IMG/VR virus record: IMGVR_UViG_2778261643_000013
Source: a virus
Taxonomy: Duplodnaviria > Heunggongvirae > Uroviricota > Caudoviricetes
Direction: 5' to 3' (one strand)
Length of the DNA: 36,636 nt
The position numbers and the translations under genes were made by a program. Positions within the stretch are counted from its first letter, which is position 1; each line of letters opens with the position of its first letter. Below, one piece after another: positions 21,722-22,069 of the stretch. The notes under the pieces are model-generated. The model did not search any database. It was not told the origin of the DNA and worked only from the letters and a program-made list of their open reading frames with translations.

Positions 21722-21796
21722 TGGAGCGGGCAGCGGGAATCGAACCCGCATCATCAGCTTGGAAGGCTGAGGTAATAGCCATTATACGATGCCCGC
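21722..21796 (-). tRNA. glyT: tRNA-Gly (anticodon UCC)
   Basis: 75-nt cloverleaf, anticodon loop CUUCCAA; matches my recollection of E. coli glyT. Confidence 0.85.
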
Positions 21797-21799
21797 ATA

Positions 21800-21875
21800 T
21801 GGTGCCGACTACCGGAATCGAACTGGTGACCTACTGATTACAAGTCAGTTGCTCTACCTACTGAGCTAAGTCGGC
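21800..21875 (-). tRNA. thrU: tRNA-Thr (anticodon UGU)
   Basis: 76-nt cloverleaf, perfect acceptor stem GCCGACU/AGUCGGC, anticodon loop CUUGUAA. Confidence 0.8.
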
Positions 21876-21877
21876 AC

Positions 21878-21954
21878 TGGACCGCCACCGGGGACTCGAA
21901 CCTCGCACACTCAACTTAAAGGGTTGACGCTCTTTCCTGATGAGCTAGTGGCGG
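21878..21954 (-). tRNA. tRNA-like gene of uncertain identity (anticodon loop CCUUUAA)
   Basis: 77 nt; perfect 7-bp acceptor stem, normal D and T arms, 5-bp anticodon stem; positions 34-36 read UUU but position 33 is C and discriminator is U. Confidence 0.55.
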
Positions 21955-21955
21955 C

Positions 21956-22031
21956 TGGTGGCCCTTGCTGGATTTGAACCAGCGACCTGGCGATTATGAG
22001 TCGCTCGCTCTCACCACTGAGCTAAAGGGCC
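21956..22031 (-). tRNA. ileZ: tRNA-Ile2 (anticodon CAU, ileX/ileZ-like)
   Basis: 76 nt; anticodon loop CUCAUAA; closely resembles E. coli ileX rather than elongator tRNA-Met. Confidence 0.75.
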
Positions 22032-22040
22032 GGGCGCAGG

Positions 22041-22069
22041 ATAATAACGTTACGAAATCAATGTTGCAA
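22041..22069 (-). promoter_or_regulatory. Sigma70-like promoter directly upstream of the tRNA cluster
   Basis: -35 TTGCAA, 17-nt spacer, -10 TATTAT, about 9 nt before the tRNA-Ile 5' end. Confidence 0.55.

Follow-up and report, generated by a model that had tools for sequence, protein, structure and literature searches.

Shiga toxin (Stx) phages such as 933W, VT2-Sakai and Stx2a_F451 carry a cassette of tRNA genes, ileZ-argN-argO, between the antiterminator gene Q with its terminator tR' and the late genes; the first gene of this cassette, ileZ, encodes a tRNA for the rare codon AUA. Two other described cases are relevant here: phage tRNA-Lys rescues infection from PARIS (PMC12409363) and from PrrC170 (PMC11555353), and a tRNA-Arg(UCU) mutated to UGU rescues the deletion of tRNA-Thr(UGU) in Escherichia coli (Saks, Sampson and Abelson 1998, as cited in PMC3923123). 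Here we analyze a 36,636-nucleotide (nt) stretch of DNA from a virus of the class Caudoviricetes (IMG/VR record IMGVR_UViG_2778261643_000013), which in its full length is hereafter called the window, and in particular a cassette of four tRNA genes on its minus strand, the second of which (21954-21878) has the anticodon UUU. The cassette resembles those of the Stx phages in its location between Q/tR' and the late genes, in the placement of ileZ as the first gene, in the presence of a homologous second gene and in the promoter hexamers found upstream. It differs from them in the anticodon loop of the second gene, which is CUUCGAA (argN, UCG) or CUUCUAA (UCU) in the Stx-phage cassettes and CCUUUAA in the window, and in the genes that follow: in place of argO, the window contains copies of the host genes thrU and glyT, with no stx genes after them. 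Sequence comparison identifies the UUU gene as the argN homolog of the lambdoid ileZ-argN cassette, shifted by two changes in the anticodon loop, U33C and C35U. Our preferred account, to which we give about even chances, is that it represents a young, anticodon-shifted derivative of prophage argN that is co-transcribed with the rest of the cassette, probably still processed, at best a weak additional decoder of lysine codons, and decaying in much of the population.

The initial annotation of this DNA described the loop of the second gene as CCUUUAA, with the anticodon UUU by position, C at position 33 and a U discriminator, and the sequence itself, ARAGORN and the alignment to the Rfam tRNA profile (RF00005, gathering score 29 bits), the latter two of which were used to call tRNA genes across the window, agree with this description in every respect. 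The gene reads CCGCCAC-UA-GCUC-AUCAGGAAA-GAGC-G-UCAAC-CCUUUAA-GUUGA-GUGUG-CGAGG-UUCGAGU-CCCCG-GUGGCGG-U-CCA, with a C1-G72 pair, the 7-nt loop C32-C33-U34-U35-U36-A37-A38, the discriminator U73, an A51.C63 mismatch in the T stem and an encoded CCA. A canonical loop was not recovered when the bases were recounted, and an alternative register with a canonical reading was ruled out, ARAGORN and the Rfam alignment both giving 7 nt with C33. The gene passes the test for an elongator-tRNA cloverleaf (ARAGORN tRNA-Lys(ttt); Rfam 44.4 bits, E = 2e-6), with A51.C63 as the only mismatch, and the Prokaryotic Genome Annotation Pipeline (PGAP) labels this allele tRNA-Lys. Thermodynamic folding was uninformative on function: the cloverleaf is not the minimum-energy fold of the UUU gene and is even less favored for bona fide argN alleles.

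Three nucleotides set the gene apart from the tRNAs that it might be taken for. U33, which forms the U-turn of the anticodon loop, is nearly universal in elongator tRNAs, and here position 33 is C, as it is in all 76 related loci. C35 is a major determinant for arginyl-tRNA synthetase, and because position 35 of the UUU gene is U, its arginine identity would be lost. By its anticodon, U34-U35-U36, which comprises the main determinants for lysyl-tRNA synthetase (LysRS), the product would be a lysine acceptor reading AAA and AAG. Lysine identity in E. coli consists of the anticodon triplet together with A73, and any substitution of A73 lowers lysine acceptance (PMC9976931); the UUU gene has U73. 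It is highly improbable, in our judgment, that the product is still charged with arginine and inserts this amino acid at lysine codons as a low-level mistranslating tRNA. The body is that of a tRNA-Arg, with an A-rich D loop that includes A20, through which such charging would proceed, and the resulting Lys-to-Arg substitutions are conservative and would be tolerated, but the nucleotide at position 35 is U, and U35 is a lysine determinant.

The derivation of the UUU gene from the argN lineage is apparent from several comparisons. When E. coli genomes and phage records were searched with BLAST, the gene showed 80.5-84.4% identity with argN (UCG) of Stx phages and 89.6% with a prophage tRNA-Arg(UCU). 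It also occupies the same slot, starting 1 nt after ileZ, where argN starts 1 nt after ileZ in one related locus (L005) and 9 nt after it in F451. The anticodon arm of the closest Arg(UCU) gene, TCAAC-CUUCUAA-GUUGA, differs from the arm found here, TCAAC-CCUUUAA-GUUGA, by U33C and C35U only. An IMG/VR scan with the T-arm pattern shared by these genes recovered 48 genes of the UUU type (hereafter Lys-like), 15 Arg(UCU), 54 Arg(UCG) and 10 others. The gene had been proposed to be a variant Lys-like tRNA; an origin as a diverged host lysT was rejected, the global alignment to K-12 lysT being poor and gapped and all closest BLAST relatives being tRNA-Arg, and the comparison with argN of Stx phages instead shows homology to that gene.

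Single-step intermediates on the same arm, that is, U33 with UUU or C33 with UCU, were not found in IMG/VR, where the search returned only three unrelated chance matches. Among the GTDB species representatives, the enterobacterial matches are confined to E. coli and Shigella flexneri; the other eight matches are in unrelated taxa and were set aside. The absence of intermediates from IMG/VR together with this narrow distribution suggests that the lineage is young and has a single origin. The experiment of Saks et al., as cited in PMC3923123, offers a parallel: there too the body is that of tRNA-Arg(UCU), position 35 is mutated, and the loop belongs to the trio UCU/UGU/UUU with U36-A37. That case was a single laboratory mutation that kept U33, whereas the window contains a natural double change, U33C and C35U, known from sequence. 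Literature searches returned nothing for ileZ/argN/argO as whole words in the open-access literature and no description of the Arg origin of the UUU gene, its C33 or the dynamics of the cassette; in RefSeq the gene already bears the label tRNA-Lys.

To compare the constraint on the genes of the cassette, parsimony changes per column were counted for 69 cassettes on one tree. The values are 0.11 for ileZ (7 variable columns), 0.22 for Thr (12 variable columns), 0.55 for the UUU gene (18 variable columns), 1.17 for the six columns of the inter-tRNA spacers (3 variable columns) and 3.4 for the leader (63 variable columns). The UUU gene thus changes faster than Thr (p = 9e-4) and at approximately five times the rate of ileZ (p = 7e-7), the gene with the strongest conservation in the cassette, from which it also differs in the number of variable columns (p = 0.03). 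Because the leader and the downstream flanks are mosaic between phages, their high counts overstate the neutral rate, and the six spacer columns and the neighboring tRNAs were therefore used as the reference instead. The UUU gene is under relaxed, perhaps residual, constraint and is clearly less protected than ileZ.

The allele spectrum in the host population points in the same direction. The UUU gene is present in approximately 798 of the 5,426 complete E. coli genomes, and 279 of these carriers, for example, strain 165 (NZ_CP020509), have exactly the allele of the window. Two other alleles are common, one with C4U, U8C and C11U (171 genomes) and the other with a 1-nt deletion in the D stem and G69U (222 genomes); both are left unannotated by PGAP and fall below the 29-bit threshold of Rfam, whereas the ileZ, Thr, Gly or Arg genes of the same loci score 57-74 bits. 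Alleles below tRNA detection are accordingly present in at least 393 of the approximately 798 carriers, or about half. Further alleles show G18A or C.A or C.U mismatches in stems, and the gene is wrecked in two loci (L150, L187); conserved tertiary nucleotides are thus missing from common sister alleles through U8C, G18A or a deletion of U12. Sequenced phages carry mostly damaged alleles, with 13 records at 95-99% identity to the UUU gene against 2 at 99% or more, and in four IMG/VR loci the slot gene is cleanly deleted so that ileZ abuts Thr. Its restriction to E. coli and Shigella, a rate several times that of ileZ and damage in about half of the genomes that carry it together mark the gene as probably dispensable.

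The annotation of these genes is inconsistent across phage records. Phage vB_EcoM-606R7 (ON470580.1, 16845-16921) has exactly the window allele at a place where the depositors annotated only Met, Thr and Gly genes, whereas the PhiR47_1 and PPompW_EH2201 records label the UUU gene tRNA-Lys.

The initial annotation left open whether the gene is a decoy or replacement for host tRNA-Lys or a decaying pseudogene. With about half of the carriers having alleles undetectable as tRNA and a rate about five times that of ileZ, the second of these possibilities fits better, although the window allele itself has no breaking lesions. Like the tRNA pseudogenes of defective prophages, the Lys-like genes have a non-canonical nucleotide at a conserved position, change faster than their neighbors and frequently occur as alleles with a D-stem deletion or U8C. 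Unlike such pseudogenes, the window allele has a complete cloverleaf with CCA, passes tRNA models and belongs to a set in which loop positions 33-38 do not vary.

In the account that we favor, ileZ, the UUU gene, Thr and Gly would be transcribed as one tight polycistron from the conserved promoter upstream of ileZ and, upon induction, additionally by Q-antiterminated late transcription through the cassette. Given its intact acceptor and T arms and its encoded CCA, the product of the UUU gene would probably still be excised as a tRNA-like RNA by RNase P and 3' trimming. As a decoder, the product would be handicapped by C33, which precludes a canonical U-turn, by U73 in place of A73 and by the weakened T stem, so that charging with lysine would yield weak decoding at best. 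The gene would be turning into a pseudogene and would persist as a hitch-hiker in a tRNA cassette that is useful.

Several observations weigh against this account. In the number of variable columns (p = 0.31 against Thr) or in the fraction of non-reference loci, the UUU gene is indistinguishable from Thr and Gly, which are real tRNAs. Its 0.55 changes per column lie below the 1.17 of the spacers (p = 0.06) and far below the 3.4 of the leader, and pairing is kept by 8 of the 14 stem variants, compared with about one third expected by chance (p = 0.06). Across the 76 loci, C33, U34, U35 and U36 are unvarying and the whole of positions 33-38 is invariant. Among E. coli genomes, 798 have the UUU allele and 16 the closest Arg(UCU) allele, a ratio of approximately 50, and the Thr gene of the cassette family made a switch to UUU of its own, the second in this family. 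The window allele keeps the tertiary nucleotides U8, A14, G18G19, the TPsiC loop (UUCGAGU) and A58 along with the encoded CCA; all its stems are paired save A51.C63, there is no structure-breaking lesion, and C33 is its sole departure from a universal position. The A51.C63 mismatch is shared with the argN allele of locus L005, which PGAP annotates as tRNA-Arg and which scores 43.0 bits, and the 44.4 bits of the window allele lie within the range of its Arg relatives (43.0-57.8). Nor is C33 alone the mark of a dead gene, given that it occurs in 6 of approximately 70 tRNAs (Pro GGG, Ile GAU, Val GAC twice, Thr GGU and Val UAC) in three unrelated phage arrays of 21-25 tRNA genes each (L029, L110, L106).

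One ileZ copy (L161:2545-2621) has the loop CCUAUAA rather than CUCAUAA, through U33C and C34U, so that the anticodon C has moved to position 33, as in the Lys-like gene. This loop was considered as a recurring pattern and rejected, being a singleton in IMG/VR.

The two genes downstream of the UUU gene have a different source. Thr(UGU) (21875-21800, minus; Rfam 73.8 bits) and Gly(UCC) (21796-21722, minus; Rfam 64.9 bits), both also called by ARAGORN, are 100% identical to K-12 thrU and glyT, respectively. They are separated by 3 nt in the window, whereas in the host tyrU and 116 nt lie between thrU and glyT; in one related locus (L056) Thr is still followed by the host spacer and 33 nt of tyrU. 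Given the identity to thrU and glyT and the host spacer and tyrU remnant in L056, sequence comparison indicates that the two genes were captured by the phage from the host thrU-tyrU-glyT operon. The Thr gene itself has diversified in the cassette family. In one lineage G35U, accompanied by A26G, gives the anticodon UUU in the canonical loop CUUUUAA; this lineage comprises about 4 IMG/VR loci (L094, L146, L173, L178 and L192 are listed) and 6 complete E. coli genomes, for example, NZ_CP025842.1 (1040162-1040237), in which PGAP annotates it as tRNA-Lys. In the Arg(UCU) cassettes (L017 and 18 more), Thr(UGU) has U16C and U20C, with the D loop AGCAGGCA.

These switches bear on a possible, although unlikely, alternative in which the UUU gene encodes a working, nuclease-insensitive tRNA-Lys, that is, an Arg body recruited to AAA and AAG that serves the late genes when AriB of PARIS or PrrC cleaves host tRNA-Lys(UUU). 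E. coli has six tRNA-Lys(UUU) genes, five of them recovered here, and for this reason a Lys tRNA in a phage is not accounted for by codon supplementation. AriB targets host Lys(UUU), Thr(UGU) and Asn(GUU), recognizing U36AAUC|A41 together with U16, and its cleavage is blocked or impaired by U39A, A41C and U16C (PMC12409363). At these positions the UUU gene has G39, U40, U41 and C16 instead of the required U39, C40, A41 and U16, so that all three mapped determinants (39, 41 and 16) are absent; because the Arg body supplies G39, U41 and C16, the product should escape AriB while keeping the anticodon UUU, as judged by sequence comparison. Phage tRNA-Lys has a precedent in this role, in the rescues from PARIS and PrrC170 cited above, and an Arg(UCU) body altered at position 35 is able to assume another identity in living E. 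coli cells (Saks et al. 1998, as cited in PMC3923123). The independent switch of the Thr gene to UUU is in line with the same idea, as is the Thr allele of the sister Arg(UCU) cassette, whose U16C is an AriB-resistance change; Asn(GUU) and Thr(UGU) are found downstream of Q in other lambdoid phages (PMC3636060) and together with Lys(UUU) make up the AriB target set. The cassette also has its own conserved promoter, and tRNAs with C33 occur in the other phage arrays described above.

Other observations speak against it. The gene is under relaxed constraint, alleles below tRNA detection are found in about half of the carriers, and damaged alleles are present in viable phages; U73 is unfavorable for LysRS (PMC9976931). 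C33 as a general anti-nuclease change is unsupported: gamma-toxin and colicin E5, the nucleases for which published data came to light, still cut substrates with U33C. The Thr gene of the window is the cleavable host thrU sequence, the Thr-to-UUU variant is present in 6 genomes only, and no tRNA-Lys nuclease is among the annotated genes of the prophage in the window. As for the proposal in the initial annotation that the gene replaces host tRNA-Lys cleaved by anticodon nucleases, the absence of the AriB determinants is in its favor, but C33 does not fare well as a protective change. T5 tRNA-Lys, which acts against PARIS AriB, and the tRNA-Lys of SP15 and other phages, which act against PrrC170, resemble the UUU gene in being phage-borne with a UUU anticodon, and in the gene studied here positions 39, 41 and 16 differ from host tRNA-Lys. 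The T5 and SP15 genes, however, come from virulent phages, encode bona fide Lys tRNAs that have U33 and were shown by experiment to rescue infection, whereas the gene in the window is Arg-derived, has C33 and U73, belongs to a temperate prophage under relaxed constraint and is known from sequence.

A bolder version of this alternative, which we hold to be slightly less probable still, is that lambdoid phages made a nuclease-proof tRNA-Lys from the Arg tRNA of the cassette by C35U and U33C, with a stem and D loop of Arg type to which AriB is blind and with C33, next to the PrrC/RloC cut site, as a further means of escape, the cassette as a whole being an anti-defense module rather than an aid to codon usage. 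If so, the Thr-to-UUU switch, the Thr U16C allele and a tRNA-like gene with a free-running loop of 5-6 nt, described next, may be sister products of the same arms race.

The last of these genes came to light in an unbiased scan for ileZ-N(70-90)-Thr in related loci. In the sister ileZ-X-Thr-Gly cassettes (L127-L153 and L210-L251), the slot of the UUU gene is filled by a tRNA-like gene of 73-74 nt with a loop of 5 or 6 nt (for example, L127:5537-5609 and L132:1719-1792). There are 18 different loops in 64 loci, with the pattern [C]NNN-R-T, and ARAGORN could assign no normal anticodon to these genes, which few E. coli genomes and no sequenced phage records contain. By parsimony over 57 loci, the loop columns show 10.6 changes per column, compared with 8.1 for the leader and approximately 9 for the spacers, and the body columns left free by the search pattern show approximately 0-1 changes, fewer than ileZ in the same loci. 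A pairwise hint of diversifying selection on the short loops was rejected, the parsimony rate being that of the leader and spacers; because the loop columns change at that rate, the short loops appear to be unconstrained. Thus, the sequences indicate that the short-loop gene encodes a tRNA-like RNA that takes no part in decoding, with a conserved, strongly selected body and a free loop, and since such genes occupy the sister slot, the slot appears to tolerate loss of decoding. In another clade of the same tRNA family, with about 15 loci (L035, L045, L282-L297), the loop is CAUAUAA, with A33 and the anticodon UAU, and it is kept across approximately 6 alleles in which the D loop, T loop and discriminator vary. 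The existence of the two clades implies that the slot gene left canonical decoding several times.

By analogy, the UUU gene could be a non-decoding tRNA-like RNA that is kept for its body, either as a scaffold for RNase P that separates ileZ from Thr or as a decoy for tRNA-binding defense proteins, with the UUU loop a product of drift; we regard this as quite improbable. The free loop and protected body of the short-loop genes and the retention of CAUAUAA across alleles are what such a role would predict. In E. coli, polycistronic tRNA transcripts are processed by RNase P cleavage between closely packed tRNAs, and with the 1-, 2- and 3-nt spacers of the cassette the RNase P cut at a downstream gene would make the 3' end of the upstream one. 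Against this stands the weak conservation of the Lys-like body, with its fivefold rate relative to ileZ and its common U8C and D-stem-deletion alleles, as well as the tolerance of precise loss of the slot gene in the four IMG/VR loci; as for a decoy, there is no evidence for any target. Relative to ileZ, the Lys-like body is about ten times less protected than the short-loop body, and the function of the short-loop genes is therefore not confidently transferred to the UUU gene.

The body of the short-loop gene also matches, with 79% identity over approximately 81 nt, a sequence in or beside yahM in most E. coli genomes, for example, BL21(DE3) (NZ_CP053602.1, 316261-316341), and this match may be an old tRNA-like remnant.

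If the UUU gene works, it would represent a natural change of amino-acid identity via the anticodon inside a prophage. The idea of phage tRNAs as counter-defense, which comes from T5 and other large virulent phages, would then extend to the lambdoid prophages that are common in E. coli, among them relatives of Stx phages. If, as in our preferred account, it is becoming a relic, the matter is one of annotation: hundreds of RefSeq genomes give a plain tRNA-Lys for an Arg-derived gene of doubtful function with C33 and U73, and close alleles of the same gene go wholly unannotated. In both cases, the cassette lets the turnover of tRNA genes be followed as in a small natural experiment, which combines capture of thrU and glyT, shifts of anticodon and loss of decoding with retention of the body.

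With regard to its layout, the cassette begins with the tRNA-Ile2/Met gene of the ileZ type (anticodon CAU; 22031-21956, minus), which is called by ARAGORN and by Rfam (72.5 bits); PGAP labels it tRNA-Ile in identical genomes, and the annotation of Stx2 phage F451 names it ileZ. The spacers of 1, 2 and 3 nt follow in the order of the cluster, and all four genes encode CCA. The initial annotation held that Ile(CAU), Thr(UGU) and Gly(UCC) are canonical, which is borne out by ARAGORN and by Rfam scores of 64.9-73.8 bits, and that the four tRNAs lie between Q and the holin gene, where Stx phages have ileZ-argN-argO, a location confirmed by ARAGORN, Rfam and PGAP. In the PGAP annotation of an identical genome, the flanking genes are those for the Q antiterminator (22226-22915, minus) and a class II holin (21214-21429, minus), and the surrounding element is a lambdoid prophage at serU. 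Because its integrase and cro/cI genes are frameshifted in that genome, the prophage may be defective. The interval between the Gly and holin genes contains two perfect inverted repeats, one with 11-nt arms and a 24-nt loop (21670-21715) and the other with 16-nt arms and a 41-nt loop (21590-21662), both on the minus strand; the region 21590-21715 matches no Rfam family, and the repeats may serve in 3' processing or termination of the tRNA transcript. Elsewhere the window holds the sok antisense RNA with hokD (24931-25106), the small RNA DicF (31179-31230) and, at the end of the prophage beside the frameshifted integrase gene, tRNA-Ser(CGA), that is, serU (35656-35745).

Upstream of the cassette, a near-consensus promoter had been placed between tR' and the first tRNA gene. 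A candidate sigma-70 promoter, TTGCAA-N17-TATTAT (22069-22041, minus), does occupy this position, with its -10 element ending 9 nt before the first tRNA base, but only 9 of the 12 consensus positions match, so that "near-consensus" overstates the case. Because the 1.2-kb region contains 4 such matches, compared with 1.5 +/- 1.4 in shuffled sequence, the match says little by itself. Across 199 related loci, which have 87 distinct leaders, however, TTGC and TAT(T/C)AT are the best-conserved upstream columns, at a fixed spacing of 17 nt and in varying surroundings, and the -10 hexamer is invariant among 40 Lys-like cassettes. Since the hexamers, the spacing and the distance to the first tRNA are kept while the neighboring sequence varies, it is likely that the cassette promoter is real.

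A tR'-like intrinsic terminator, found in the terminator scan and coinciding with the inverted repeat I2 (approximately 22133-22168, no strand assigned), lies between this promoter and the late promoter region. The promoter scan detected a second promoter-like site, TTGCAA-N17-TATATT (22242-22214, minus), at the end of the Q gene, which is a candidate late promoter of the PR' type; Q-modified transcripts from this site that read through into the tRNAs are a plausible second source of the transcript. Between the late promoter and tR', the stretch 22137-22210 (minus) gave sub-threshold Rfam matches to isrK (22.7 bits) and isrJ (24.5 bits), which fits a short PR'-tR' RNA of the lambda 6S or Gifsy isrK type, and in the related locus L017 the match to isrK is strong (77.5 bits).

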